Assembly: GCA_903854365.1 (NCBI GenBank)
Contig: CAINWE010000377.1
Span: forward strand, 1 to 24,038
Direction: 5' to 3'
Length of the DNA: 24,038 nucleotides
Origin: Oligoflexia bacterium
GTDB taxonomy: Bacteria; Bdellovibrionota; UBA1018
The stretch's first letter is position 1. The number at the start of each line of letters is the position of its first letter. Position numbers and translations under genes: made by a program. The notes below the pieces were generated by a model. It saw nothing but the letters and a program-made list of their open reading frames with translations, was not told the origin of the DNA and did not search any database. Below, one piece after another: positions 1 through 14,998 of this stretch.

Positions 1-639
1 TCTCATGGTCAGTGTGGGATTTTAAATCCCGAGGGCGATCACGTTGAAAACGCAGCGACGGTACAACAACTGGCGAGCCTCGCATTAGATTATGCGCATG
101 CAGGCGCCGATTGTATTGCCCCGAGTGACATGATGGATGGTCGAATTGGTGCGATTCGAAGTGCCCTTGATTTAGAAAAACTCTATTCTACTTTGATTAT
201 GAGTTATTCTGCTAAGTTCCATTCTCGATTTTATGGGCCGTTTCGAGTGGCAGCTAATTCGGCTCCGAAGGGTGAGACCCGTCTCAAGGATCGGGCCACC
301 TATCAGATCGATCCAGCTTGTCCGCGAGATGCCTATTTGAGTTCGTTGCGAGATGCTCAAGAAGGTGCGGATATTCTCATGGTGAAGCCTGGGATGCCGT
401 ATCTCGATGTTCTGAGCGATTTATCGAAACGGATTGAAAAACCTTGGGCCGTGTATGAAGTGAGTGGAGAGTTCGCAGGGATTGAGTTGATGGCAGAGCG
501 CGGACTCGTGCGAGGGCCTGAAGCTCATCTCGAAGCTTGGACAGCGTTTTTGCGCGCGGGTGCGTCGATGATTATTACGTACGGTGCTCGATTTGCTGCA
601 GACTATTTGAAGAAAACGAATGAAAAATGGCTGAAATAG
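1..639 (+). CDS. hemB: Porphobilinogen synthase (delta-aminolevulinate dehydratase), 5'-truncated by the window edge
   Basis: Frame is open from base 1 (SHGQCG...AGADCIAPSDMMDGR). It contains YSAKFHSRFYGPFR, YQIDP, MVKPG (Schiff-base Lys) and YEVSGEFA. Stop TAG at 637-639. Confidence 0.96.
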   Translation, partial: SHGQCGILNPEGDHVENAATVQQLASLALDYAHAGADCIAPSDMMDGRIGAIRSALDLEKLYSTLIMSYSAKFHSRFYGPFRVAANSAPKGETRLKDRATYQIDPACPRDAYLSSLRDAQEGADILMVKPGMPYLDVLSDLSKRIEKPWAVYEVSGEFAGIELMAERGLVRGPEAHLEAWTAFLRAGASMIITYGARFAADYLKKTNEKWLK

Positions 640-647
640 GAGTGAGA

Positions 648-1946
648 ATGAAAAACCAACTTTCTGAGGGTCTTTTTGAGCGGTCCAAGAAAATCGTACC
701 AGGGGGGGTGCATTCTCCGGTGCGCGCGTTTCGAGGGGTGGGTGGAACCCCGGTTTTTGTTCAGTCGGCCCGCGGGGTTGAACTGCAGGACGTGGATTCT
801 AACCGTTACTTAGATTTTTGTATGTCTTGGGGGCCATTGATGCTGGGGCATCAAGATCCAGAGGTTTTAGAGGCGGTGCAAGGGGCTCTCCATCGTGGCT
901 GGTCTTTTGGGACCGCAGAGCCTTATTCGCTCGAATTAGCGGAGCTGATGACCCAAACCATTCCATGGCTTCAAAAAGTCAGGTTTGTGAACTCAGGAAC
1001 TGAGGCTGTGATGGCAGCACTCCGAGTCGCTCGCGCTGCAACGGGAAGAAGTAAGATTCTGAAATTCGATGGCTGTTATCACGGTCACGTGGACTCGATG
1101 CTGGTGAAGGCTGGATCCGGTTTGGCTGAAATGGCGAGTCCGGACAGTGCAGGAGTTTCTGCACAGGTGGCTTCGGAAACCTTAGTGGTTCCGTTGAATG
1201 ATTTGGCGCAGTTGAAGCAGGTGTTCGAGTTACACGGCTCGGAGATTGCGGCGGTGATTGTGGAGCCTATTCCTGCGAACAATGGCTTGCTTCTTCAAAA
1301 ATCTGAGTTTTTGACCGAGATGGCGGCCTTAGCGAAGAAGGCCGGCAGCCTAGTGATTTTCGATGAGGTCATTACTGGATTTCGTGTTGCTTGGGGAGGA
1401 ATGGCTGAAAAATCAGGGGTGATCCCGGATCTGGTGACTTACGGCAAAGTCATTGGGGGGGGCTTTCCCGTGGGTGCCTACGGCGGACGTGCGGATCTCA
1501 TGAACTGGGTGGCTCCTGCAGGGCCTGTGTATCAAGCGGGGACTTTGAGTGCGAATCCGATTGCAATGACTGCCGGTTTAGCCACTTTGAAAAAAATTCG
1601 CAGAGAGAATTTTTATTCCACTTTAGAGATGAAGGTCGATGCTCTCGCAAATGAGCTCGAAAAAGTGGGTCAAAAGGCGGGTATTGCTCTCAAAGTGCAA
1701 CGAGCCGCCTCGCTTTTTTGGTGTGTTTTCGGAAACATTAAAACGAATGACGGTTTCGTGAGGCATCCTGGACAAACTCCCGAGGAGCATAAGGCAATCT
1801 ATTCTCGGGTGTTTCACGCACTTTTGAATCAGGGGATTTATTTGGCGCCAAGTGCCTTTGAAGTCTCCTTTTTATCTCGGGCTCACCAGGACGAGCACTT
1901 GAATCGTTTGGCGGAAACGCTCGGCAGTGCTCTCGCGAAATTGTGA
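648..1946 (+). CDS. hemL: Glutamate-1-semialdehyde 2,1-aminomutase
   Basis: PGGVHSPVRAF, RFVNSGTEA, FDGCYHGH, FDEVITGFR, TYGKVIGGG (PLP Lys), YQAGTLSANP. ATG 648 is preferred over 627 because AGGAG lies at 638-642. Confidence 0.96.
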   Translation: MKNQLSEGLFERSKKIVPGGVHSPVRAFRGVGGTPVFVQSARGVELQDVDSNRYLDFCMSWGPLMLGHQDPEVLEAVQGALHRGWSFGTAEPYSLELAELMTQTIPWLQKVRFVNSGTEAVMAALRVARAATGRSKILKFDGCYHGHVDSMLVKAGSGLAEMASPDSAGVSAQVASETLVVPLNDLAQLKQVFELHGSEIAAVIVEPIPANNGLLLQKSEFLTEMAALAKKAGSLVIFDEVITGFRVAWGGMAEKSGVIPDLVTYGKVIGGGFPVGAYGGRADLMNWVAPAGPVYQAGTLSANPIAMTAGLATLKKIRRENFYSTLEMKVDALANELEKVGQKAGIALKVQRAASLFWCVFGNIKTNDGFVRHPGQTPEEHKAIYSRVFHALLNQGIYLAPSAFEVSFLSRAHQDEHLNRLAETLGSALAKL

Positions 1947-1959
1947 AGGGATTTGAGTT

Positions 1960-2931
1960 TTGAGTTGGCACTCGGGAGAGCGGGCTACTTCACAGAAGTT
2001 GAGCTCTGACGATCGATTACGCTGGATGGTGGGAGCTCATCTCGTTTGGCTAGCGTTAGTCTGCTTACTCGGCGGATGGTGGTGGAGGCTTCTCTTGAGT
2101 CAAGCGGCTCAAATTGCCGAGTTGGGCTCGGACCTGGATCGCTGGCATCGAACGCAGAGGATGCTTTACTGGGAGTCACCGGCTTTTTTTGGTCTCCTAC
2201 TCGCCTGTTCAGTCCTGATTTTCTGGATGTATTGGGCTGATGTCAAAAGAGCGCGTGGGATTCAGGCGTTTTTTGCATCGGTGACGCATGAGTTGAGGAC
2301 CCCGTTAACGGGGATTCGCCTCCAGGCGGAGTCGATTGCAGAGAGTCTCGGTGAGGCTCATCCAGAGGCGCCTCTCGTGAAGCGACTTTTAGAAGATACG
2401 ATGAGGCTTGAAGCGCAGGTGGAGAGAACCCTGGAGCTTGCTCGCTTGGAAGGGGGAGGGCCTGTTTTTATTCAGTCTCTTCAACTCAAGCCTTGGGTAG
2501 AGCGCTGGATCAAGGCTTGGCGCCAAGACTATCAAGGCCGCGTCGAGCTGGACCTCGAGATTGAGGACGTCTGGATTGAGGCGGATCCCACGGCTTTGCA
2601 GATTATTTTTAAGAATTTATTTGAAAATGCTCTCAGGCATTCAGGTCTTGATGCAGTGAAGATCGAGTTGCGAACGTGTTCACTGAGAGAACAGCGCATT
2701 CAGCTCTGGCTGAGAGATGATGGACAGGGTTTTTCTGGGGACCAAAAGAGCTTGGGGAGGCTATTTCAAAAGGGACCTCGCTCTACGGGCACAGGGGTGG
2801 GGCTTTATTTGGTGAGCACTTTGATGACACGGATGGGCGGAGCGGCCAGCTATCCGTTAGGGAAAGCTTCGAGTTCCAGGTCAGGTTTTTGTGTGGAGCT
2901 GACTTTTCGAGAGGGTCAAAGCCATGAGTGA
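1960..2931 (+). CDS. Membrane sensor histidine kinase (two TM helices, very short extracytoplasmic loop)
   Basis: H-box VTHELRTPL, N-box KNLFENALRH, G1 DDGQG, G2 GTGVGL, and two N-terminal hydrophobic segments. TTG start preceded by GAAGGGA. Confidence 0.92.
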   Translation: MSWHSGERATSQKLSSDDRLRWMVGAHLVWLALVCLLGGWWWRLLLSQAAQIAELGSDLDRWHRTQRMLYWESPAFFGLLLACSVLIFWMYWADVKRARGIQAFFASVTHELRTPLTGIRLQAESIAESLGEAHPEAPLVKRLLEDTMRLEAQVERTLELARLEGGGPVFIQSLQLKPWVERWIKAWRQDYQGRVELDLEIEDVWIEADPTALQIIFKNLFENALRHSGLDAVKIELRTCSLREQRIQLWLRDDGQGFSGDQKSLGRLFQKGPRSTGTGVGLYLVSTLMTRMGGAASYPLGKASSSRSGFCVELTFREGQSHE

Positions 2932-3628
2932 AGGGCGAATGTCTCGGCTTTTGGTTGTCGAGGATGAGAAAAATGTCGGCTCGACTCTGGTCGAGAGGCT
3001 TCAGAAAGAGGGTTTCGAGGTTCATTGGGCAAAGACCATGAGTCAGGCACTTGAGCAAATTCATGCTTTAGTGTTTGAACTCGCTGTTTTGGATGTGGGT
3101 TTGCCAGATGGTTCAGGACTTGACGTGGCGGCGCTTTTGAGAAAAAAGCAGCCCGGGACTGCTGTGATTTTCTTGACTGCTTTTGGGAATGCAGAGGACA
3201 GGATTCGAGGACTTGAGTTGGGGGCTGAGGATTATGTGGTGAAGCCGTTTCATCTGCGCGAGTTGATTCTCCGGATTAGAAATGGTTTAAAGCGCGCTCA
3301 GTTTGTCTCTCTAGCGTCGGTGGGTCCGCAAGAGGTAGTCAAGGTCGGGAAGGCACAGATTTTTTTCCTGCGCTTTGAGGCTGAGGTGGATGGGCAAGTG
3401 GTTCCATTGTCTCACAAGGAGGTTGCGCTGCTTAAGTTGCTGACGCAGAGGAGGGGCCAGGTTGTGAGCCGGGATGAGATTTTGAATCACGCTTGGTCAG
3501 AGGATGAGTTTCCAACTCCTCGGACCGTCGATAATTTTATTATGAGAATTAGGCGATTGGTTGAGCTCAATCCAGAGCTACCTGAAGTCATTAAGAGTGT
3601 TCGAGGAATAGGATATCAACTTTTATGA
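2924..3628 (+). CDS. OmpR/PhoB-family response regulator
   Basis: Receiver domain (LVVEDE, LDVGLP phosphoacceptor Asp, FLTA, YVVKPF) and winged-helix C-terminus (RTVDNFIMRIR, SVRGIGY). Overlaps the kinase by 8 bp and hemE by ATGA. Confidence 0.94.
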   Translation: MSEGRMSRLLVVEDEKNVGSTLVERLQKEGFEVHWAKTMSQALEQIHALVFELAVLDVGLPDGSGLDVAALLRKKQPGTAVIFLTAFGNAEDRIRGLELGAEDYVVKPFHLRELILRIRNGLKRAQFVSLASVGPQEVVKVGKAQIFFLRFEAEVDGQVVPLSHKEVALLKLLTQRRGQVVSRDEILNHAWSEDEFPTPRTVDNFIMRIRRLVELNPELPEVIKSVRGIGYQLL

Positions 3629-4680
3629 ATTTATTTGAATTAGCGTTAAATAGAAAAAATGAAAACAGACCGCCCGTTTGGTTCATGAGGCAAGCGGGTC
3701 GCTACCACGCCCATTATCAAGCGCTTCGTCAGAAATATAGTTTTATCGACCTTTGTAAAATACCCGAGGTCGCCTGTGAAGCCACGATGGGGCCGATTCG
3801 GGATTTTGATTTTGATGCGGCGATTTTGTTTTCAGATTTATTGTTTCCCCTTGAAGTGATGGGAATGGGTCTAAAATACGAAGAGGGCCCGAAGCTAGAT
3901 TGGCATTTGAGGCACGTGAGGGATCTCGACAAGCTTAAGGGTGGCGCTGCTCTGGTCGATGGGCTGATGTTTCAGGCAGAAGCGATGCGATTGATTCGGC
4001 GACAACTCGCACCCGAGAAGGGGCTTTTAGGATTTGTTGGTGGGCCGCTGACCTTGTTTTGTTACGCTGTCGAGGGCTCTCATCAAGGAGCCTTAGATTC
4101 TGCTCGAGCTGGATTGAAGGATGGCAGATTTGAAGGATTTTTTGAGGCCTTAAAAGATCTTTTGGTTGAGAATATGCGGATTCAGGCTGAAGCGGGCGCA
4201 AGTACGATTGCGGTTTTGGATACCTGCGCAGGGGAGTTTGCTTCCGACGATTATGTCGCCTATGTCCAAAAAGCCCTTCGGCCGGTCGTGGAGTCATTTC
4301 GTGCCCAGGTCCCAGGAACCCCTGTTGTTTACTATTCTAAAGGGACGAGCTGGAACCACTGGGATGCGTTGACGGATCTGCCCTTCGCTGGACTCGGCGT
4401 GGATTGGCGGACGGACTTAGCGGAAGTCCTTTCTCGCTACGGGTCTCGTTGGGCGATTCAGGGAAACGTTGACCCCCACTGGCTCTTTTTAGAAAGTGGC
4501 GAACTCGAGGGGCGGCTGAGACGAGTGTTTGAGTCTGTGCTTCGATTACCCGCCGAAAGTCGCAGGGGGTGGATTTGCGGACTGGGTCATGGAGTTTTAC
4601 CAAAAACTCCTGAAGCGAATGTGCGACTCTTTCTGAAGCTTCAAAAGGAAATGTTCTCCAAAGAAGGCGGCTCTCGATGA
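3625..4680 (+). CDS. hemE: Uroporphyrinogen decarboxylase
   Basis: PVWFMRQAGRY, DAAILFSDL, IQGNVDP and LGHG signatures. ATGA coupling on both sides. Confidence 0.96.
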   Translation: MNLFELALNRKNENRPPVWFMRQAGRYHAHYQALRQKYSFIDLCKIPEVACEATMGPIRDFDFDAAILFSDLLFPLEVMGMGLKYEEGPKLDWHLRHVRDLDKLKGGAALVDGLMFQAEAMRLIRRQLAPEKGLLGFVGGPLTLFCYAVEGSHQGALDSARAGLKDGRFEGFFEALKDLLVENMRIQAEAGASTIAVLDTCAGEFASDDYVAYVQKALRPVVESFRAQVPGTPVVYYSKGTSWNHWDALTDLPFAGLGVDWRTDLAEVLSRYGSRWAIQGNVDPHWLFLESGELEGRLRRVFESVLRLPAESRRGWICGLGHGVLPKTPEANVRLFLKLQKEMFSKEGGSR

Positions 4681-6044
4681 CAACCTCAGATTCTCTATTT
4701 CGGAAATATAATGTGCCTGGTCCTCGATACACCAGTTATCCGACTGTGCCCTATTGGACGGACTCACCGACTGAGTCGCAATGGATCGATTGTATTTCTG
4801 AGTCCTTGATTGAGGGACGGAGGCAAGGTGTAGGAGCGGCGCTCTACATTCATATCCCTTTTTGTGAAAGTCTTTGTACGTATTGCGGGTGCAACACTCG
4901 AATTACTCGGAATCGCTCGGTCTCTCGACCCTATGTGGAGAGTTTGTTGAAAGAGTGGGCTCTTTATCGATCGCGCTTAGGCTCTGACATCAAGATCAGT
5001 GAAATTCATTTGGGAGGTGGGACCCCGACCTTCTTGGCCGTGGATGATTTGAAGCTTTTGGTAGAAGGCATTTTGGGGCCGGTCCAGGTGAGTGAGAAAG
5101 CGGAGTTTTCTTTGGAGGCTGACCCGCGGGTCACTTCACGGGAGCAGCTTGCTGTTTTGAGTCAGCTCGGATTTCGGAGATTGAGTCTTGGGATTCAGGA
5201 CTTTGATCCGAAGGTTCAAGAAGTGGTTCATCGCATTCAATCGAAGGAGCAGGTCGGCGAAGTGACGGAGATCGCCCGGGCTCTCGGTTATTCGAGTATT
5301 AACTATGACCTGATTTATGGGCTTCCCTTTCAAACTCAGCGAAGTATTCGAGATACCATTGACGTGGTTCGCGGTTTGATGCCGGATCGAATCGCTTTCT
5401 ATGGTTATGCGCATGTGCCTTGGATTAAGCCAAGTCAAAGGCGATTTACTGAGGCTGACTTGCCATCTGGGGATGAGAAGCGAGCCTTGTACGAACTCGG
5501 ACGATCTCTTCTCGAAGAGGTCGGTTACGCCGAGGTGGGGATGGATCATTTTGCACTGGCTCAGGACTCTCTCTGGCAGGCCTACGAGCAGGGGAGTCTG
5601 CATCGGAATTTTATGGGGTATACCCCCCGATTTGTGACGCCTTTGATTGCTCTTGGGGTTTCTGCGATTGGAGATTCTGGTACGGCATTTGCGCAAAATG
5701 AAAAGCTCGTGGAAACCTATCAGTCTCGAGTGGATCAAGGAGAGATTCCGATCCAGCGAGGCCACTTGCTGACCTCGGAGGATCGTGTTTTGAGGCGTCA
5801 TATTCTGAATTTGATGACTAAGATGGAGACGAGTTGGGAGTCGCGAGAGCTGCAGTCGCGTCACCTCGATCTGGCGCTCGAAAAATTGACCGAGTTGCAA
5901 CGCGATGGATTAGTCGATCTGACGCCGTATTCCTGCAAGGTGACTCAGCAGGGGCGTCCGTTTATGCGAAATGTTTGTATGGCGTTTGATGCTCGATTGG
6001 CCGAGCGGACGCCAGATTCTCAACTTTTTAGTAAAACGATTTGA
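4677..6044 (+). CDS. hemN: Oxygen-independent coproporphyrinogen III oxidase (radical SAM)
   Basis: GPRYTSYPT, HIPFCESLCTYCGC (CxxxCxxC), GGGTP, GMDHFAL, HRNFMGY and GVSAIG. Full-length 455 aa HemN type in a heme operon. Confidence 0.95.
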   Translation: MTTSDSLFRKYNVPGPRYTSYPTVPYWTDSPTESQWIDCISESLIEGRRQGVGAALYIHIPFCESLCTYCGCNTRITRNRSVSRPYVESLLKEWALYRSRLGSDIKISEIHLGGGTPTFLAVDDLKLLVEGILGPVQVSEKAEFSLEADPRVTSREQLAVLSQLGFRRLSLGIQDFDPKVQEVVHRIQSKEQVGEVTEIARALGYSSINYDLIYGLPFQTQRSIRDTIDVVRGLMPDRIAFYGYAHVPWIKPSQRRFTEADLPSGDEKRALYELGRSLLEEVGYAEVGMDHFALAQDSLWQAYEQGSLHRNFMGYTPRFVTPLIALGVSAIGDSGTAFAQNEKLVETYQSRVDQGEIPIQRGHLLTSEDRVLRRHILNLMTKMETSWESRELQSRHLDLALEKLTELQRDGLVDLTPYSCKVTQQGRPFMRNVCMAFDARLAERTPDSQLFSKTI

Positions 6045-7016: not shown

Positions 7017-7090
7017 AATGCTTCTCCTTCTCAGAATGTCTCACCGTAAGTCAAATGAGTTTGGTGATGAGAGTGGGATTATTGCCGAGA

Positions 7091-7137
7091 GTTTTATTTA
7101 TATTGAGAAAATATACAATTAAAATTAGGATTTTTAT
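7091..7137 (+). promoter_or_regulatory. AT-rich divergent intergenic segment with candidate -10 boxes for the DUF2844 operon
   Basis: Much more AT-rich than flanking genes. TACAAT at 7114-7119, TAAAAT at 7120-7125, AGGA at 7127-7130 before ATG 7138. No convincing -35 at correct spacing. Confidence 0.35.
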
Positions 7138-7647
7138 ATGGATTATATTTTAAAAAATACATTTTTTTTTGCACTCACTTTTAGTGGGCTTTCGCTGTTG
7201 GTGCAGGTCAATGCTGCTCACGCCTACTTAGGCGGAGGAGTCGATTCAATTGAAGTTGATCGAAAGACTTTGCGAGCTGAAAAATCTCCTACGCAAGTCC
7301 GGGCGAGGTCTCAAGCGGATGCACTCCCTTATACGGTGACAGAGATGGTTGCCGCCGGAGTTCAGGTCCGAGAGTATCTCTCTAAAACGGGCGTGGTTTT
7401 TGGGATTGCGTGGAGCGGAAGTCACCATGCGAATGTGTCAGCCCTTTTAGGCGAGTATCGTTCTGAATATGAAAAAGCTTTTGCTTCGAACGTGGCTCAG
7501 TTTGGCCTACATCGTGGCTTTAGAGGTCGAACGGTCCGCTCAGAGAATATCCAAATCGATCTTGGCGGGCATTTTAGAAACATGAGTGGAAGAGCCTATT
7601 CTCCTGCACTTTTACCGGCTGGGGTGAACGTCAATGATATTAAATAA
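7138..7647 (+). CDS. DUF2844-family secreted protein
   Basis: Signal peptide ending AAHA|YLGG. VREY...VFGIAWSG, LLGEY, GGHF...SGRAY.PALLPAGV..NDIK match the DUF2844 pattern as I recall it. Lies directly upstream of DUF3443, its usual partner. Confidence 0.82.
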   Translation: MDYILKNTFFFALTFSGLSLLVQVNAAHAYLGGGVDSIEVDRKTLRAEKSPTQVRARSQADALPYTVTEMVAAGVQVREYLSKTGVVFGIAWSGSHHANVSALLGEYRSEYEKAFASNVAQFGLHRGFRGRTVRSENIQIDLGGHFRNMSGRAYSPALLPAGVNVNDIK

Positions 7648-9166
7648 GGTGTCTTCGGGTAGGGTCTCTGTTTTCCGTGCCTGGATTGTCCTCTGTTTGG
7701 GTCTGGTGCTGGTTGACTGCGGCGCAGCAAAAAGCATGCTGTCTGGTGCTAGCTTAAATACGGGGGGCGGGTCTAACCAAACTGTGAATCAGTGTTCGCA
7801 AACGACGAGCGATCAAAATTTAAATGTGAACCCAACGTCAGGCGGAGCCAGTCTCAATGCAGTAACCGGTAATAACGTCATGTCTTTGACGATCGACGGT
7901 GATCAGTGCCTTTCAGTGCCTGCTACGGATCCTAGTGCTCATACTCCGCCGAACGCTCCCTGTGTGAGTGTTACGGTATGTCCTCCTGGTTCAGCTTCGT
8001 CTTCAGCGCCAAACTGTCAAGTGATTCACGGCCTGCTCTTAGATACAGGGAGCGTAGGGTTACGAGTTTTTAGATCGGCGATGAATTGCGGCCTGGTGGC
8101 TGCTTTGACTCCAGTTGGCGTGAGTTCGGGTAAGATTGCGGCTGAGTGCGTCACTTTTGCGGACGGCAGCGCTGAGTGGGGTCCCATCGCGCAAGCTACA
8201 GTATTTATGGGCGGTGAAGGGGGTGCAAGTACTCCTATTCAAATTATCGATGATACCTTTGGCGGAGCGTGGAATGGTGCGACCTCGGGTTCAAGCGTGA
8301 GTGGCCCAGCCGTTTGTCAGTCGTTGGCGGGTGCCGGTTCGAGCAGCACGGAAACCCTGGATCAGGGACCTGCTCAATTGGGGTATAACGGGGTTCTTGG
8401 GGTGGGTCTCTATGCGCAGGACTGCGGTACTCAGTGCACCAACCCGACTCCTTACCCTCAATACTATTCGTGTACTGGGAATTTGACCTCGGCAACTACC
8501 TGTAGCCTGCAGCCGATTTCGCTGAGTAAAGTCAGTCAGGTTCAGAACCCGGTCGCTCAATTGCCACAAGACAATAATGGCGTCGTAGTCATGCTTCCGA
8601 GTGTCGGACAGACAGGCGCTACTTTCGCAGGTGGGTATTTAGTTTTCGGAGTAGGAACGCAGGCGAACAATACTCCTGCTGGGAGTGTGAAAACATTTCT
8701 TCAAGATCCTTCAACGGGTGAGATTACGGCTTCTTTGAATGGGGCGACTAACCCGGCTTTTCTCGATACGGGATCGACCTACTATAATTTTGCTGCTGGT
8801 AGCTCCACTTCGGGGCTCGTGGACTGTGGGACTCTGAGTAGCATATTTTCAGGCCTGGGATTTTATTGCCCGACAGGAAGCACGGGATCGACTACTAATG
8901 TAGTGTCTTTGTCGTCCACAATTTCAGGTTATACAGGGTCCTCCGCCTCGGCTGCGGTGACGATCTCGGTTGGAAACCCTCTCGATCTCTTTAGCGCGGC
9001 TAATAATAATTGGGTGTTCTCTGATATTGGGGTTGGGTCGAGTCTTTCAGGTTTCTCCAGCAGCACAGTGGACCTAGGCTTACCGTTTTATTTCGGGCGC
9101 TCGGTGTATCATGGATTTGAGAGTCGGTCTTCATCCCTCGGTTCCGGACCCTATTGGGCGTTTTGA
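7634..9166 (+). CDS. DUF3443-family exported protein, predicted pepsin-like aspartic protease (paralogue 1)
   Basis: Has the family motifs NPV and DNNG. Two catalytic-type motifs LLDTGS (Asp codon 8042) and FLDTGS (Asp codon 8765), plus NGVLGVG and VDLGLPF. N-terminal hydrophobic signal with Cys (LVDC). Confidence 0.85.
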   Translation: MILNKVSSGRVSVFRAWIVLCLGLVLVDCGAAKSMLSGASLNTGGGSNQTVNQCSQTTSDQNLNVNPTSGGASLNAVTGNNVMSLTIDGDQCLSVPATDPSAHTPPNAPCVSVTVCPPGSASSSAPNCQVIHGLLLDTGSVGLRVFRSAMNCGLVAALTPVGVSSGKIAAECVTFADGSAEWGPIAQATVFMGGEGGASTPIQIIDDTFGGAWNGATSGSSVSGPAVCQSLAGAGSSSTETLDQGPAQLGYNGVLGVGLYAQDCGTQCTNPTPYPQYYSCTGNLTSATTCSLQPISLSKVSQVQNPVAQLPQDNNGVVVMLPSVGQTGATFAGGYLVFGVGTQANNTPAGSVKTFLQDPSTGEITASLNGATNPAFLDTGSTYYNFAAGSSTSGLVDCGTLSSIFSGLGFYCPTGSTGSTTNVVSLSSTISGYTGSSASAAVTISVGNPLDLFSAANNNWVFSDIGVGSSLSGFSSSTVDLGLPFYFGRSVYHGFESRSSSLGSGPYWAF

Positions 9167-9168
9167 AG

Positions 9169-10548
9169 ATGGGGGCGTGTGGGGTGAATGACTTACTCGT
9201 CCTGATCATGGTGATGATCCTGGGGTGTGCGTGTGCAAAATCTAACCAGAATGCTGTGGTTTCTAGTGGGCTTCCGAACGGCACTACCTTGCCTACGATG
9301 ATTGGGGATAATGTATTGCGTTTGACGGTCGATGGCGATCAGTGTCTCTCTAGCCCCTCGACTGCGGCGAGTTCTGTGGTACCTCCTAACGCCCCCTGCG
9401 TCAGTGTCACGGTTTGTCCGCCGGGAACTAGTTCCTCCTCTGCCAGTCAATGCCAGGTGATTCCCGGCCTCTTGGTGGATACTGGGAGCGTGGGTCTAAG
9501 GGTCTTTAAGTCAGTGATGAATCATTCGCTTTTGAGTCAGCTGGTAAGTGTGGCGGCCCCCGCCGGGGGTATTGTTGCTGAGTGTGTCGGTTATGCGGAT
9601 GGTTCGGCCGATTGGGGGCCGATCGCCGAGGCGACCGTGTTTCTGGGCGGCGAGCCCGGGGTAAATACTCAAATCCAGCTGATTGATAGCACTTATGGTA
9701 CGGCGAGCGTGTGTGGCGGTAATTTGGATCAAGACCCAAGTCATTTGGGGTATAATGGAATTTTGGGGGTTGGGCTTTTTCCGCAAGATTGCGGGACTGC
9801 TTGTGAGAGTACGAATTCAACCCTCAATCCTGGGATGTATTTTTCTTGTTCGGGAACTCTCAGTACGGCCACGAATTGCAATACGACTCCTATTTCTCTC
9901 GCGGCTTCTCATCAAGTTCAAAACGTCATTGCTCATTTACCGGTCGATCCGAACACCGGTACCCAAGATAATAATGGAGTGGTCCTGATGCTGCCCAGTG
10001 TTTCTGCGAGCGGAGCTCCCGAGGTCGATGGGTATCTGATCTTAGGGGTTGCAACCCGGAGCAATAACACGCCGGCCAGTAACGTGGTAGCTTACCCGCC
10101 GGATCCATCGACTGGCAATATCACGGCAATGCTGAACGGCGTTGTCAATGAGGCTTTTATTGATAGCGGGTCCAGTTTTTATAATTTTGCTGCAGGTTCC
10201 TCGACTGGAAATTTGGCGGATTGCGGCAATTATAATAGCGCTTATTTACGCGCGGGCTACTACTGTCCTTTGAATAATGCGAATGCAGTGCAAAGTATTA
10301 GTCTGCCTATTTCGGGGTATAATGGTTCCCAGACCTCATTGATTTCTTTGCTGATGGGCAATCCACTCGATCTCATTGGGGTAAATGGAAATTTTGTCTT
10401 TGCAGATATCGCTACTGGCTCAAGCTTGAGTGGGATGGCTTCAAATACGGTCGATCTCGGCCTCCCCTTTTATCTAGGAAGAAATGTTTATCATGGCTAT
10501 GCGTTCAAGTCTTCTTCTCTAGGGTATGGGCCCTATTGGGCATTTTAG
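9169..10548 (+). CDS. DUF3443-family lipoprotein, predicted pepsin-like aspartic protease (paralogue 2)
   Basis: Colinear with paralogue 1. LVDTGS (Asp codon 9478), FIDSGS (Asp codon 10162), DNNG, NGILGVG, VDLGLPF, same C-terminal GPYWAF, lipobox ILGC. Start ATG 9169 (2 bp after the upstream stop) is uncertain; GTG 9184 is an alternative. Confidence 0.85.
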   Translation: MGACGVNDLLVLIMVMILGCACAKSNQNAVVSSGLPNGTTLPTMIGDNVLRLTVDGDQCLSSPSTAASSVVPPNAPCVSVTVCPPGTSSSSASQCQVIPGLLVDTGSVGLRVFKSVMNHSLLSQLVSVAAPAGGIVAECVGYADGSADWGPIAEATVFLGGEPGVNTQIQLIDSTYGTASVCGGNLDQDPSHLGYNGILGVGLFPQDCGTACESTNSTLNPGMYFSCSGTLSTATNCNTTPISLAASHQVQNVIAHLPVDPNTGTQDNNGVVLMLPSVSASGAPEVDGYLILGVATRSNNTPASNVVAYPPDPSTGNITAMLNGVVNEAFIDSGSSFYNFAAGSSTGNLADCGNYNSAYLRAGYYCPLNNANAVQSISLPISGYNGSQTSLISLLMGNPLDLIGVNGNFVFADIATGSSLSGMASNTVDLGLPFYLGRNVYHGYAFKSSSLGYGPYWAF

Positions 10549-11471
10549 TTGGCGCATTGTTGAATGACTATTTTCTCAGGAGTCTGGAGGTAACTTTCTT
10601 CGGCGAATTTGCAAGACACTCCGTCGCCGGGATTTTCCTCGACGAAATACCGCCGCCATGCAAACGGATTTGAAAAACGGAAGTTGAAAGGGAACCCAAT
10701 TCCCGGGGAGGCGGCCGTGGGTGTCGGTACGGCTGAGGATCGGGGACTCGGTGAGGGGCTCGGTTCGGGTCGAGGCGATGGGCTCGGTGAGGAACTGGAT
10801 GTAGGAGTGGGCGAAGGGCTCGGTGTGGGCGAGGGGGAGATCGTCGGCGTGGGCAAGCTGGGGGGCGCTCCGGGAGCGTTCTGTGGGGTAAGGTCGCGGG
10901 TCGTTTTGCCGAGGTTCCAAAACACAAATGCTCGAATCACCGGATAGTCAGGGTCCTTGCAGTCGACGTGGCCTTTGATTTCGATTAAGGCAGGAGTGGT
11001 GCAGTTGAGATTGCCAGCCCCGTCATTTTTAACACGGATTTGACCGCCATCGATGCTGAGAGCAAGATTTCCGCTGGGTGGGAACTCCCAGGTTGTAGCC
11101 AGGGAGGTGCGCGTTAGGCCCCGGACGTCGAGTGTGTTTTTTTTACAATCGACTTGAATCAATAAAGGTCTAAGTGACTCATTGAGCTCCAGGGAGTTTA
11201 GAGATGTCGGCGCGGTGACTAACTCGAGCGGTGAGGGTTGTGGCGGAGCGATATAGCCATGGGGACATTGACTGCCAAAGCTTGCGCTTCCCAAGACAGG
11301 AATGACGACGAGACGATTATCGGAAGAGGTTCTCCTCGAGTTCATGGGTTCTCTTTGGTCGGTGGGAGGTGGCGTAGATGGAGCAGGAGCCATCGAGTCC
11401 GAAGAGTCGCTGCCGCATCCGAGAATCGTCATGAGCAAGAATCCTGTGGATGACCATTTTCTAGTCTTCAT
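10545..11471 (-). CDS. Hypothetical lipoprotein with Pro/Ser/Thr-rich linker
   Basis: MKTRKWSSTGFLLMTILGC is a typical lipoprotein signal (start ATG 11471). Six further Cys and a ~60 aa PSPT-rich tract. No recognised family. Confidence 0.72.
   Translation of the reverse strand: MKTRKWSSTGFLLMTILGCGSDSSDSMAPAPSTPPPTDQREPMNSRRTSSDNRLVVIPVLGSASFGSQCPHGYIAPPQPSPLELVTAPTSLNSLELNESLRPLLIQVDCKKNTLDVRGLTRTSLATTWEFPPSGNLALSIDGGQIRVKNDGAGNLNCTTPALIEIKGHVDCKDPDYPVIRAFVFWNLGKTTRDLTPQNAPGAPPSLPTPTISPSPTPSPSPTPTSSSSPSPSPRPEPSPSPSPRSSAVPTPTAASPGIGFPFNFRFSNPFAWRRYFVEENPGDGVSCKFAEESYLQTPEKIVIQQCAN
10703..10888 (-). repeat. Low-complexity coding repeat (PSPTPSPSP...)
   Basis: Recurring GGGCTCGGT-type units on the + strand encode Pro-Ser/Thr repeats in the minus-strand lipoprotein. 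Confidence 0.8.
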
Positions 11472-11546
11472 TGTGATCCCGGACTGCAAGCGACAAGCCA
11501 AGCGCTGAGCTATTCCCTGAGCTCAATGCCCAAGATCAAGGGTCCC

Positions 11547-12845
11547 CTACTGAATTGGGCTGAGTTGGGCGAGGCGCGCAGTGTCTTCGATCATTCCTCG
11601 GATACTGACGGCGCCCGTATAATTACCCGCCAAGATTCGGCCGGGTTGCGAGCACCACCCGTCGCGTGCGAGATTCCAAGCGTGAACCAGGTTTTGGTCG
11701 TAGAGCGGGATTGCGTGTGGCCAATGTGTGATCGCATAATGCTCGATAGGCCCGCTCCATCCAAAGAGGGAATTTAATTCTGCTTCGATTGTGAGCAGTG
11801 TTGGTCGGTCGCGATCTAAGTGGAAATGGGAGGACTGAGTTTGAGTGAGCATGATGGTCAGCGAAATCCATTTCCCTGAGTCGAGCACTCGATGTTGAAA
11901 AGCACTCGAGTTGAAAAGAATGCCGAGGCATTTTCGGCCCTCCACTGCTGGCATTAAAACGCCGACTCCTTCGGGGATTAATTTGATGCGGCTCTTTTCT
12001 AAAAATACGGTAGCCGTTGAGAGAGAAGCCCATTGAAGTGCGTCGAGCGCTTGTGCGAGTTGAGGATCTGCAGAATTGAGGAGCTTGCTTGCTTGCGAAG
12101 GCGGCACTGCAAGAATGAGGTTGTCTGTTTTTGGGAGTTCACGAACGGGGTGATCAAGGTGAATGCGTTCGGGATGGCTCGCCATGAGATGATCTTTTAG
12201 GGATTGAATGAGGCTCTCCATCCCATTTTTTGGGGCCATCATTTTGGGCTTTGATCGAGATGACGTTGCGATGCGTTTTTTCAGGAAGTTCAATAGGAGG
12301 TGCGTAAACAGGGTTCGTCCCTGAGGTACGACGAGTGAGGGAAACGCCGCGTTGACTAGAATTTGATGGGGCGATGCTCCAAAAATACCTCGGAGCATAG
12401 GGCTGACCAGGTACTCGAGTGCTGGCTGCCCTAAATAGAGCTGCGTCCATTCGGCCAAGCTCAGCGGATGATCACTGCTGGAGCGGGCCCAAAAACTTCT
12501 GAACAGAGCGCGGATCGCTTCAGAAAAGGTCATGGGAAATTGTCGCATTTGCCCATTTCTGAGAATCCACCGCGCTCGAGAGTGAGGATTGACTTCGAGA
12601 AGTTCAATGCCGAGGTCGCCAAAAAGTTTTTCGACTTCTGGGGTGACCAAAAGTGAGTGAGCTGCTGCCTCTGTGATTCCGAGGGGTGTGGACTGGGTTT
12701 GAATAAGGCCGCCCCAGCGCGTACTTTCTTCATACAGGTGGACGTGATATCCAGCCCGGGTGAGGTAATAGCAGGCGAGAAGTCCGGAAACTCCTCCGCC
12801 GATGATCGTCACTTCACGAGAATTGGGATTGAGTTTACCGATCAT
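11547..12845 (-). CDS. hemY: FAD-dependent protoporphyrinogen oxidase (HemY/PgoX type)
   Basis: Rossmann IIGGGVSGL, E...RWGGLIQT, GIFGA, PKNGMESL, GVGVL, LGILFNS and WPHAIPLY. Start set to ATG 12845 (MIGKLNP), just before the dinucleotide-binding motif. Confidence 0.88.
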   Translation of the reverse strand: MIGKLNPNSREVTIIGGGVSGLLACYYLTRAGYHVHLYEESTRWGGLIQTQSTPLGITEAAAHSLLVTPEVEKLFGDLGIELLEVNPHSRARWILRNGQMRQFPMTFSEAIRALFRSFWARSSSDHPLSLAEWTQLYLGQPALEYLVSPMLRGIFGASPHQILVNAAFPSLVVPQGRTLFTHLLLNFLKKRIATSSRSKPKMMAPKNGMESLIQSLKDHLMASHPERIHLDHPVRELPKTDNLILAVPPSQASKLLNSADPQLAQALDALQWASLSTATVFLEKSRIKLIPEGVGVLMPAVEGRKCLGILFNSSAFQHRVLDSGKWISLTIMLTQTQSSHFHLDRDRPTLLTIEAELNSLFGWSGPIEHYAITHWPHAIPLYDQNLVHAWNLARDGWCSQPGRILAGNYTGAVSIRGMIEDTARLAQLSPIQ

Positions 12846-12950
12846 GGGCCATCTCTTCGAAATAGGGTACGTTGAAGGTGTATCTATCCGATTTCTTCGT
12901 TGTGTGCCATACTTGAATCTCAAAAAGAGCTGAGAAGGGAAAGGCCAAAC

Positions 12951-13463
12951 ATGAGTCTAGGCGTGATTCGAGGAATAAAGCTGAAATACAGAATCTTGTT
13001 TTTTTTGACCTTAGGCGTGGTCATCCTCGACCAGATCACCAAATCGATGATCCTCGAAAGGTTTGGTCTGGGTATGACGTTACCCATTATTCCCAATTAT
13101 TTTAACCTGACCTATGTTCAAAACCGCGGGGCAGCTTTTGGTTTTCTTGCACAGACGGATCCAGCGTTTCGGGTGCCATTTTTCATTGTAGTGCCGACCT
13201 TGGCGCTGGTCTCCATTGCGCTCGTATTTCGGAGGCTGGCAGATCGAGATCTCAAAATGGCATCGGCGTTGTCGTTAGTTGTGGCTGGCGCCTTAGGGAA
13301 CTTAATCGACCGCTTTGTTTTGGGTTTTGTGGTCGATTTCTTAGATTTTCATTGGCACTGGGGTTATCATTTTCCCGCATTCAACGTGGCAGATTCAGCG
13401 ATCTGCATTGGCGTAGGATTGCTAATGTTGGATTGGTTTAAACAAGAGAAGCAGTTAGACTGA
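12951..13463 (+). CDS. lspA: Lipoprotein signal peptidase II
   Basis: LDQITK, NRGAAFG, GALGNLIDRF, VVDFLD and PAFNVADSAI (catalytic Asp pair). Start at ATG 12951 is inferred. Confidence 0.95.
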   Translation: MSLGVIRGIKLKYRILFFLTLGVVILDQITKSMILERFGLGMTLPIIPNYFNLTYVQNRGAAFGFLAQTDPAFRVPFFIVVPTLALVSIALVFRRLADRDLKMASALSLVVAGALGNLIDRFVLGFVVDFLDFHWHWGYHFPAFNVADSAICIGVGLLMLDWFKQEKQLD

Positions 13464-13484
13464 GGCGAAAAGGAGCAAAGTTCG

Positions 13485-14330
13485 ATGCATCCAGAGCTAC
13501 TCAAAATTGGTCCCTTCCCTATTCATACCTATGGTTTTTTGATTGCCATCGGCTTTATTGTGGCTGCAGAAGTTCTTAGGGTGCTGTCGATTCGAGCCAA
13601 ACTCGATACCGAACGCGTCCTAGAAGCGGCTTATTGGAGTCTGTTGGTCGGATTATTGGGTGCTCGAGTTCTCTTTGTGATCACTCAATTGAGAGAGTTT
13701 TCTCATGATCCGCTCGGGATTTTTAGAATCTGGGAGGGAGGCCTCGTCTTTTTAGGCGGCCCGATCTTTGTCATCCCTTTTCTCATTTGGTATTTGCGCA
13801 AATATAAAGTCCCGATTTGGCCGCTTTTTGATATTGCAGCTCCTGCTCTAGCTATCGGACATGCGTTTGGACGGTTGGGTTGTTTGGCTGCGGGCTGTTG
13901 CTATGGCAAACCGACGGGGACTGCTTTTGGGGTGAGGTTGTACTCCAATATTGTCGAGCCTCACCTTCAAGGAATTCCGCTTCACCCGACCCAGCTCTAT
14001 GAGGCCGGATCGCTCCTGGTGCTTTTCTTTGGGCTGCTTTGGCTTCTGCGGCGCAAGGTGTTTGAAGGTCAGGTGGCACTTGCTTATCTGATTGCCTATC
14101 CCGTCATTCGCAGTATCATCGAAGTGTTTCGGGGAGATCTAGTGCGGGGTTTCGTCATTGATGATGTTCTTTCGACGAGTCAGTTCATTTCTATTTTTGT
14201 TTTTCTCGGTGCCGTTTGCGCATTGATTTTTCGACTCAGACAAGTGCAGTCGGAGGGGTTAGAGGGGCTTAAGCAAGGGCTTCAGAATCAAAAAACGGGA
14301 GGTTCCCCGTCTATGCTGGAGACCAAATGA
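13485..14330 (+). CDS. lgt: Prolipoprotein diacylglyceryl transferase
   Basis: TYG, LLGAR, IWEGGLVFLGG, GRLGC..GCCYG, HPTQLYE and R...EVFRGD. Confidence 0.94.
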   Translation: MHPELLKIGPFPIHTYGFLIAIGFIVAAEVLRVLSIRAKLDTERVLEAAYWSLLVGLLGARVLFVITQLREFSHDPLGIFRIWEGGLVFLGGPIFVIPFLIWYLRKYKVPIWPLFDIAAPALAIGHAFGRLGCLAAGCCYGKPTGTAFGVRLYSNIVEPHLQGIPLHPTQLYEAGSLLVLFFGLLWLLRRKVFEGQVALAYLIAYPVIRSIIEVFRGDLVRGFVIDDVLSTSQFISIFVFLGAVCALIFRLRQVQSEGLEGLKQGLQNQKTGGSPSMLETK

Positions 14331-14998
14331 CTTTTGGATTGCTCTCTAGCGCTTGGCCAGGGCTTTTATTTGGGTTTTGTTTTTTCATTGGGGCGATTCC
14401 CTTTGGACTGCTGATCGCGCGAGTATTTAAGATCAAGGAGTTTCGAAGAACGCTTCCTCAAGCCGCTTCACGGCCTCATCTGGCAGAAGTAGCCGGCATC
14501 TGGCCGGCTGGGATTTTGAGCGTTCTTCTTGATTTTGCAAAAGGTGTCTTGACCCTCGTGTTGTTGACACCGGTAGGTTATCGGTTCCTATCTAAATTTA
14601 TAGGAGCAACCGGAGAGCTGAGTGGGCTTGAAGAAAGTATAACCCTGAGTTGGGCTGCCGGATTTTTCACTGTTTTAGGGCACTGTTTGTCTCCGTGGCT
14701 ACAGTTTCGTGGAGGCAAAGGCGTTGCGATTGTTTTTGGGGTCATTACAGTACTCTCTCCTCTTGCATCACTCTTGGGTTTGATCGCTTTTTGCTTAGCA
14801 TTGATTTATTCTCGTTTGATCTCTTTGGCCAGTATAGTGGGGTTGATGAGTGCAAGTGTGACCTATTTGGTTTTGAATCCAGTTGGAACGCAGCTTTGGG
14901 TAGGGGCAGTGATGATTTTTCTTGTGTTACTGCGTCACGAAGCCAATATCGATGCGCTTCTTGAGCAACGTGAGCCAAAATTCGTTCCTAAGTTTTAA
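14327..14998 (+). CDS. plsY: PlsY-family glycerol-3-phosphate acyltransferase homologue (degenerate motif 1)
   Basis: GAIPFG, LDFAKG, LGH, FRGGKGVA (motif 2) and RHEANI (motif 3) are present. GSGNxGxTNxxR (motif 1) is absent. Confidence 0.78.
   Translation: MTFGLLSSAWPGLLFGFCFFIGAIPFGLLIARVFKIKEFRRTLPQAASRPHLAEVAGIWPAGILSVLLDFAKGVLTLVLLTPVGYRFLSKFIGATGELSGLEESITLSWAAGFFTVLGHCLSPWLQFRGGKGVAIVFGVITVLSPLASLLGLIAFCLALIYSRLISLASIVGLMSASVTYLVLNPVGTQLWVGAVMIFLVLLRHEANIDALLEQREPKFVPKF

Follow-up and report, generated by a model that had tools for sequence, protein, structure and literature searches.

The window analysed in this study is a stretch of 24,038 nucleotides from an Oligoflexia bacterium (contig CAINWE010000377.1 of the GenBank assembly GCA_903854365.1). 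At positions 7138-10548 it carries, all on one strand, a gene for a protein of the DUF2844 family followed by two genes for proteins of the DUF3443 family, which are probably exported, pepsin-like aspartic proteases with a dedicated partner. The first open reading frame (ORF1; 7138..7647, plus strand) encodes 169 amino acids and matched PF11005 (DUF2844) with an E-value of 4e-34 and 117.8 bits over profile positions 1-130, the gathering cutoff being 22.4 bits. ORF2 (7634..9166, plus strand; 510 amino acids) and ORF3 (9169..10548, plus strand; 459 amino acids from ATG) encode DUF3443 paralogues 1 and 2, which matched PF11925 (gathering cutoff 25 bits) with E-values of 3.2e-88 (296.6 bits, profile positions 9-367) and 7.3e-84 (282.2 bits, positions 17-367), respectively. 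Both families had been named in an earlier reading of the DNA letters alone (the original prediction), and the Pfam scan bears out this assignment. No NCBIfam model was found for any of the three proteins. An alternative TTG start of ORF3 is present at 9154; the public protein catalogues have the 459-residue form (P0004).

The three genes are closely packed. The start codon of ORF2 and the stop codon of ORF1 are contained in an overlap of 14 nt (7634..7647, plus strand), which indicates translational coupling, and the TGA of ORF2 (9164-9166) is followed after a gap of 2 nt by the ATG of ORF3 at 9169; re-reading the ORF coordinates returned the layout that had been claimed. A spacer of 121 nt (7017..7137), presumed to be the promoter region, separates the genes from a divergent EamA transporter gene on the minus strand. 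It is AT-rich, as had been noted, with a GC content of 31% (14% in its final 50 nt) versus 50% in the window. AGGA is located 8-11 nt ahead of the ATG of ORF1, and promoter-like hexamers at 7097-7131 were no more frequent than expected from shuffled sequences. The assignment of the three genes to a tightly coupled operon that includes DUF2844 is supported.

We modelled ORF2 with AlphaFold2. The model showed a mean predicted local distance difference test score (pLDDT) of 84 and a predicted template modelling score (pTM) of 0.84, and was poor only at the signal peptide and the tether (about residues 1-67, of which residues 19-50 and 57-67 were modelled with pLDDT <50) and in one loop. The chain consists of a signal peptide, a disordered Ser/Gly/Asn linker (about residues 30-78) and a pepsin-fold domain (residues 79-510). 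When the PDB was searched with this model by Foldseek, 468 matches were obtained at E≤1e-3, and 50 of the 50 matches listed were pepsin-family enzymes. The matches among the Swiss-Prot models of the AlphaFold Database (AFDB) were all fungal pepsins. Alignment to pepsin-family chains by VIA-align gave Z scores of 22-23.6, with 281-293 residues aligned and root-mean-square deviations (rmsd) of 3.0-3.6 Å; the best match was polyporopepsin (1wkr; Z 23.6, 293 of 340 residues, rmsd 3.3 Å). Residues 79-510 of the model superposed on the whole chains of polyporopepsin, rhizopuspepsin, endothiapepsin, renin, pepsin, plasmepsin and candidapepsins. Since the Z scores are far above the stated background of VIA-align (Z 7-8) and both lobes are covered together, the bilobal pepsin architecture is established for the ORF2 model, and the predicted fold of DUF3443 is that of pepsin, as the original prediction had anticipated.

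The conservation of the catalytic motifs was evaluated in an alignment of ORF2 and 85 homologues (86 sequences, 37-56% identity). The first catalytic motif of ORF2, DTGS with Asp137 (8042..8053, plus strand), is preceded by LLL, and the second, DTGS with Asp378 (8765..8776, plus strand), by FL. A motif search located the corresponding sites of ORF3 as DTGS after LLV (9478..9489, plus strand) and DSGS after FI (10162..10173, plus strand). D137, D378, W182, G183, G256, G380 and G482 were invariant in all 86 sequences, and T138, G139, S140, L483, P484 and F485 were conserved in at least 93% of them. At the second motif, DSGS (48 sequences) was commoner than DTGS (36). A flap-like motif, [YF]-[AG]-D-G-S, is found 38 residues past the first Asp, with Tyr in ORF3 and Phe in ORF2; the flap of pepsin contains Tyr75 in Y-G-x-G-S. 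This position was occupied by Tyr in 46 and by Phe in 39 of the 86 sequences, so that the Phe of ORF2 is ordinary for the family. Each Asp is followed by a psi-loop motif, [IV]-L-G256 in the first case and [WL]-G482-L-P-F in the second, and the Gly of both is 100% conserved. All the motifs listed in the original prediction (the DTGS/DSGS codons, FADGS or YADGS and then WG, NG[VI]LGVG, and DLGLPF) were present where it had placed them. The whole-domain superposition suggests that the two catalytic Asp residues are juxtaposed in the model, and we infer that DUF3443 proteins are proteolytically active.

Twelve Cys columns were conserved in 81-86 of the 86 DUF3443 sequences, which is enough for six disulphides. 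Judging from these residues, the proteins appear to be disulphide-rich, as had been proposed, and this would be consistent with an extracytoplasmic location. The DUF3443 consensus contains a signal peptide ending in G-C (Gly at -1 in 62/86 and Cys in 69/86 sequences). Lipoboxes were judged by sequence inspection, with the pattern [LVI]-[ASTVI]-[GAS]-C closing the signal peptide. ORF3 has a canonical lipobox, I-L-G-C, which fits the pattern, and the signal peptide of ORF2 ends in L-V-D-C29 (7706-7720, residues 25-29) with Asp at -1, the sole such case in the 86 sequences. These N-terminal signal peptides of the lipoprotein type support the predicted export of both DUF3443 proteins. A pepsinogen-like prosegment was absent in ORF2, where the stretch from Cys29 to the first strand (residue 82) is rich in Ser, Gly, Asn and Thr. 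Big_2, ASH/Ig-like, SLH, dockerin or CarboxypepD_reg modules, which typically belong to surface or extracellular proteins, occur as fusion partners in other DUF3443 proteins (P0034, P0061, P0091 and P0108) and point to a cell-surface or extracellular site for DUF3443.

To follow the pairing of the two families, 80 DUF3443 loci were fetched from species-representative genomes, and 78 of them had enough upstream sequence to be tested. In 66 of the 78 testable loci, which are distributed over six phyla, the gene immediately ahead of DUF3443 on its strand was DUF2844. The 14-nt overlap of start and stop codons was found in 51 of these 66 adjoining loci and is near-constant in sequence (ATGAAATCAAATAA-like; ATGATATTAAATAA in the window). 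The same arrangement was present in two metagenomic contigs (L003 and L011). Clustering of the ORFs over the 80 loci revealed only DUF3443 and DUF2844 as widely shared, and no third conserved neighbour gene. The loci came mainly from Nitrospirota/Thermodesulfovibrionales, Geobacteraceae (Geobacter), Syntrophales, Anaeromyxobacter, Paraburkholderia and Acidobacteria. In the genome of the window and its 40 nearest relatives (41 genomes), DUF2844 was found in 9 and DUF3443 in 9, with 8 common to both, and the genes are adjacent in those 8. Within the host family the pair was present in 8 of 24 other sampled genomes, and it was found in 0 of 16 genomes from the other families of the order. Copy number varies between loci: DUF3443 genes in tandem, two to four of them, were observed elsewhere (L068, L042, L033, and contig C65 of genome G023, G023:C65), and contig C102 of that genome (G023:C102) has two DUF2844 genes beside one DUF3443. 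Change in the copy number of the DUF2844-DUF3443 module is recurrent.

The locus is syntenic in three other genomes of the host genus, in the order hemN, EamA (minus strand), DUF2844, one DUF3443, a gene for a Pro/Ser-rich lipoprotein (minus strand) and a hemY-like oxidase gene. Among the genus genomes compared, two DUF3443 genes were present only in that of the window, and the duplication appears to be lineage-specific. ORF2 and ORF3 share 56-59% identity, and each shares 43-47% with its same-genus orthologues. In a tree, both grouped with the orthologues of two other genomes (G001 and G002; support 81/90), and the order within this fork was left open. Since the identity of the module proteins within the genus (42-49%, versus L093, L094 and L095) is below that of the flanking genes (53-85%), the module diverges faster than its surroundings. 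The paralogues differ in the lipobox (LVD-C in ORF2, ILG-C in ORF3), in the flap residue (Phe and Tyr) and in the second motif (DTGS and DSGS), and ORF2 alone has a Gly/Ser-rich insertion of ~23 residues and two extra Cys.

ORF1 starts with a Sec signal peptide, for which a signal peptidase I site is predicted after A-H-A at residue 29, and its mature part is basic and has no Cys. In residues 27-32 (7216-7233), A-x-A is followed across the cleavage site by x-L-G, and A29, L31 and G32 were 98-99% conserved in 100 homologues. The conserved x-L-G, which is unusual for a mature N-terminus, suggests a functional role for this segment. The AlphaFold2 model of ORF1 (pLDDT 88.5) consists of two alpha+beta halves. 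Foldseek detected no significant match of this fold in the PDB (best E 8e-3), and among the AFDB clusters only DUF2844 itself was significant. In a wide VIA search the best match was the double-wing domain of YdcD at Z 7.4, within the background of the tool, and searches of the ESM Atlas by shape and by features returned no significant match outside DUF2844. BLIP-like, PepSY/YpeB, Rhs-immunity and Tsi3 structures gave Z 3.3-6.2 and the PepSY cluster a template modelling (TM) score of 0.47, all of which are within background. No second family recurred in a Pfam scan of 100 DUF2844 members, and no extra cargo domains were found among the 150 representatives listed (100-241 amino acids). The isoelectric points (pI) of the two families are opposite: DUF3443 has a median of 4.06 and is acidic in 86/86 sequences, and DUF2844 has a median of 9.6 and is basic in 91/100. 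The values in the window are 4.1 for both ORF2 and ORF3, and 9.8 for ORF1. The conserved coupling and the opposite charges would fit a role of DUF2844 as a bound partner of DUF3443.

On this evidence we favour, with a probability of roughly 70%, the view that the pepsin-fold protease is active and exported and has a dedicated partner that binds it. In the proposed mechanism, the DUF3443 proteins would be lipid-anchored, Cys-rich aspartic endopeptidases, in which the two lobes would each contribute one Asp (Asp137 and Asp378 in ORF2, those of DTGS and DSGS in ORF3) to the activation of the catalytic water, as happens in pepsin, and the flap with [YF]-[AG]-D-G-S would close over the substrate. 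The 14-nt start/stop overlap would keep the synthesis of DUF2844 in a constant ratio to that of the first protease, and DUF2844 would be exported to the compartment of the protease and there bind the acidic enzyme. It may then do the job of the prosegment until the enzyme reaches its site in the envelope or at the cell surface, if regulation runs in this direction. As the most likely role of DUF2844 we tentatively suggest that of an inhibitor or a folding chaperone which, encoded by a gene of its own, takes the place of the prosegment. The more specific version, a separate-gene prosegment, is possible and is put forward with slightly greater reserve: a basic protein, co-translated and co-exported, that would fold the acidic pepsin-fold lipoprotein, block it, or both, and would be shed or degraded at the cell surface.

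Several observations weigh against this interpretation. A profile of the 86 sequences detected no pepsin among the PDB sequences at E≤10. A full-text literature search retrieved no paper naming DUF3443, DUF2844, PF11925 or PF11005 as families; its matches to PF11005 were Plasmodium gene identifiers and irrelevant. Ten of the 78 testable loci lacked an upstream DUF2844 on the strand of DUF3443, and in 7 of these none was found within ~6 kb. The pairing is not strictly 1:1, since one DUF2844 serves two proteases in the window. The model of DUF2844 gives no structural support to an inhibitor role. The lipidation of ORF2 is doubtful to judge from the Asp at position -1 of its lipobox, and the protein could escape lipidation or follow another route of processing. 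Finally, pepsin-type enzymes usually need an acidic pH, which is not obviously present at the envelope of a lake bacterium.

The relation between the two proteins could also be that of enzyme and substrate. DUF2844 might be a dedicated substrate or precursor from which the protease releases an active fragment, or an adaptor that brings substrates to it. The x-L-G after the signal peptidase site and an Arg/Lys-rich loop (residues 120-131) are conserved without obvious structural reason, and the copy ratio of DUF2844 to DUF3443 is not fixed, both of which would fit such a role. However, the fold is conserved over its full 140 residues and its model is confident, more than a precursor destined for cleavage would require, and the lack of extra cargo domains in the listed representatives also argues against it. 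We therefore regard this explanation as rather unlikely. Less probable again is that DUF3443 is a non-catalytic pepsin-fold binding protein, comparable to TAXI-I and the pregnancy-associated glycoproteins, with DUF2844 as its envelope ligand or co-receptor. Pepsin-fold proteins without protease activity do exist, the catalysis of DUF3443 is a prediction for a family that no paper found in the literature search names, and a stable heterodimer would account for the opposite charges and tight coupling just as well. In the inactive pepsin-fold proteins that are known, residues of the catalytic machinery have been lost, whereas both Asp residues, the next Gly, the D-G-S of the flap and both psi-loop Gly are invariant or nearly so in 86 homologues of only 37-56% identity. 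The idea in the original prediction that the enzymes digest prey or nutrients in a predatory lifestyle of Bdellovibrionota finds some encouragement in the NCBI label of the host genus, Bacteriovoracaceae (Bdellovibrionota), which agrees with the host that had been proposed, and in the duplication and fast divergence of the protease gene here, but it is the least probable explanation and is not supported, given the non-predatory origin of most of the 80 loci and the occurrence of the pair in only 8/24 other genomes of the host family and in 0/16 from the other families of the order. The wide spread of the family in non-predatory sediment and soil bacteria and the fusion of its members to Ig-like, SLH and dockerin modules suggest that the DUF3443 proteases act more generally in proteolysis at the cell surface or outside the cell, and not in the digestion of prey.

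The surroundings of the module were also inspected. A gene on the minus strand (10545-11501) converges on ORF3 with an overlap of 4 nt at the stop codons. Its product, a predicted lipoprotein of 318 amino acids with the lipobox ILG-C, contains a long linker rich in Pro, Ser and Thr and matched nothing in Pfam. The gene has the same position in 3/3 further genomes from this genus (61-68% identity), but its synteny is confined to the genus, and the gene that follows the module in the metagenomic contig L003 is not related to it. Heme-biosynthesis genes flank the module (627-6044 and 11547-12923): these encode a hemL-like aminotransferase, hemE, a hemN-like radical SAM enzyme and a hemY-like oxidase, and a two-component system is embedded between the hemL-like aminotransferase gene and hemE. 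Throughout the genus, the EamA gene, the module and the lipoprotein gene are located between the hemN-like and hemY-like genes. Further downstream (12900-14998, plus strand), genes for signal peptidase II (lspA), prolipoprotein diacylglyceryl transferase (lgt) and a PlsY-like protein stand in a row, ~2.4 kb from the lipoprotein protease genes. We considered lspA and lgt as functional neighbours and rejected them; they are not conserved beside the module in other genomes, and their proximity is probably a coincidence. The sequencing runs that contain this stretch were lake-water DNA metagenomes only, with none among RNA runs.

The relationship of DUF3443 to known protease families was evaluated by sequence. 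PF00026 (Asp) did not match ORF2 or ORF3 at E≤0.1, and among the 86 members it gave three weak matches (best E 0.011). When the ORF2 sequence and the 86-sequence profile were compared with PDB chains, only spurious matches were obtained (GD and BamA, E 0.5-0.9). Slight sequence links to clan AA were found: Asp_protease_2 matched 26 of the 86 members, and PE-PGRS_C matched 1. The N-lobes of two homologues passed the Asp_protease_2 profile (PF13650) with 26.7 (P0108) and 25.1 bits (P0111) versus a cutoff of 24.3 bits, which was not reached by the proteins of the window, and the C-lobe motif regions of two others (P0016 and P0028) gave weak matches to the start of the same profile. Since the matches to Asp_protease_2 occur both at the N-lobe and at the C-lobe motif, each lobe resembles a retropepsin-like half-domain. 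Since neither PF00026 nor the pepsins of the PDB were reached by sequence, DUF3443 is read as separate from A1, and we provisionally place it as a separate pepsin-fold family within clan AA rather than as a member of A1. The match to MEROPS A1 drawn in the original prediction therefore stands for the fold, the Asp motifs and the psi-loops, and fails for sequence membership of PF00026 and for the prosegment.

If DUF3443 is active, pepsin-type proteases form a large, exported and lipid-anchored family over many bacterial phyla, and this would bear on the question of a bacterial versus eukaryotic origin of the bilobal fold. A true partnership with DUF2844 would represent a new control of a prosegment-free aspartic protease. 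Should DUF2844 prove to be a separate-gene prosegment, the module would provide the first zymogen of a pepsin-type protease that is divided between two genes, and the family concerned is one through which such enzymes would be common in bacteria. Two Pfam families of "unknown function", DUF3443 and DUF2844, gain a testable function, and the duplicated, fast-diverging ORF2 and ORF3 would be a convenient pair for a comparison of specificity.

Compared with the eukaryotic pepsin family (A1; polyporopepsin, rhizopuspepsin, endothiapepsin, pepsin, renin, plasmepsins and BACE1), DUF3443 shares the same single-chain bilobal fold, with ~290 residues aligned. Both have in each lobe two hydrophobic residues followed by D-[TS]-G-[ST], and past each Asp a psi-loop of two hydrophobic residues and Gly. 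Both are secreted and, by prediction in the case of DUF3443, disulphide-bonded, and the flap-like [YF]-[AG]-D-G-S may be the counterpart of the flap Y-G-x-G-S of pepsin. DUF3443 differs from pepsin in having ~140 extra residues in Cys-rich insertions and 12 conserved Cys instead of 6. Unlike pepsin it is bacterial and has no N-terminal prosegment, but a lipoprotein signal peptide, a disordered tether and a separate gene for the DUF2844 partner. As for this partner, the pepsinogen prosegment and PepSY/BLIP-type inhibitors offer an analogy in which a basic polypeptide is paired with an acidic aspartic protease. DUF2844 differs from the prosegment in being encoded by a separate gene and in being much larger than 44 residues, and from the PepSY/BLIP-type inhibitors in that its structural matches to them are within background and no sequence ties it to other Pfam families.

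In the literature consulted, bacterial pepsin homologues are a rarity. The shewasins and other bacterial A1 homologues were reported from only seven species, and are PF00026 members that are cytoplasmic and have no signal peptide or conserved disulphides; in some of them the flap Tyr is replaced by Phe (Rawlings and Bateman 2009, PMC2761423; PMC4814920). Shewasins A and D resemble DUF3443 in that they are bacterial, bilobal and free of a prosegment, and the Phe variant of the flap is that of ORF2. Unlike the shewasins, DUF3443 proteins are predicted to be exported lipoproteins of Cys-rich composition, are distributed over at least six phyla, are paired with DUF2844 and have no PF00026 match of their own in the window. 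The retropepsin-like bacterial enzymes of Asp_protease_2 (PF13650), such as APRc of Rickettsia and the secreted Rlo of Pseudomonas (PMC4140852, PMC11957051), share the catalytic half-domain of clan AA with DUF3443. Enzymes of the APRc/Rlo type have one lobe and are homodimeric, whereas DUF3443 has two fused, diverged lobes in each chain. Thus, what sets DUF3443 apart from these systems is that it appears to be an exported, lipid-anchored, Cys-rich and prosegment-free pepsin-fold family, provisionally of clan AA, that is tied to a dedicated partner.

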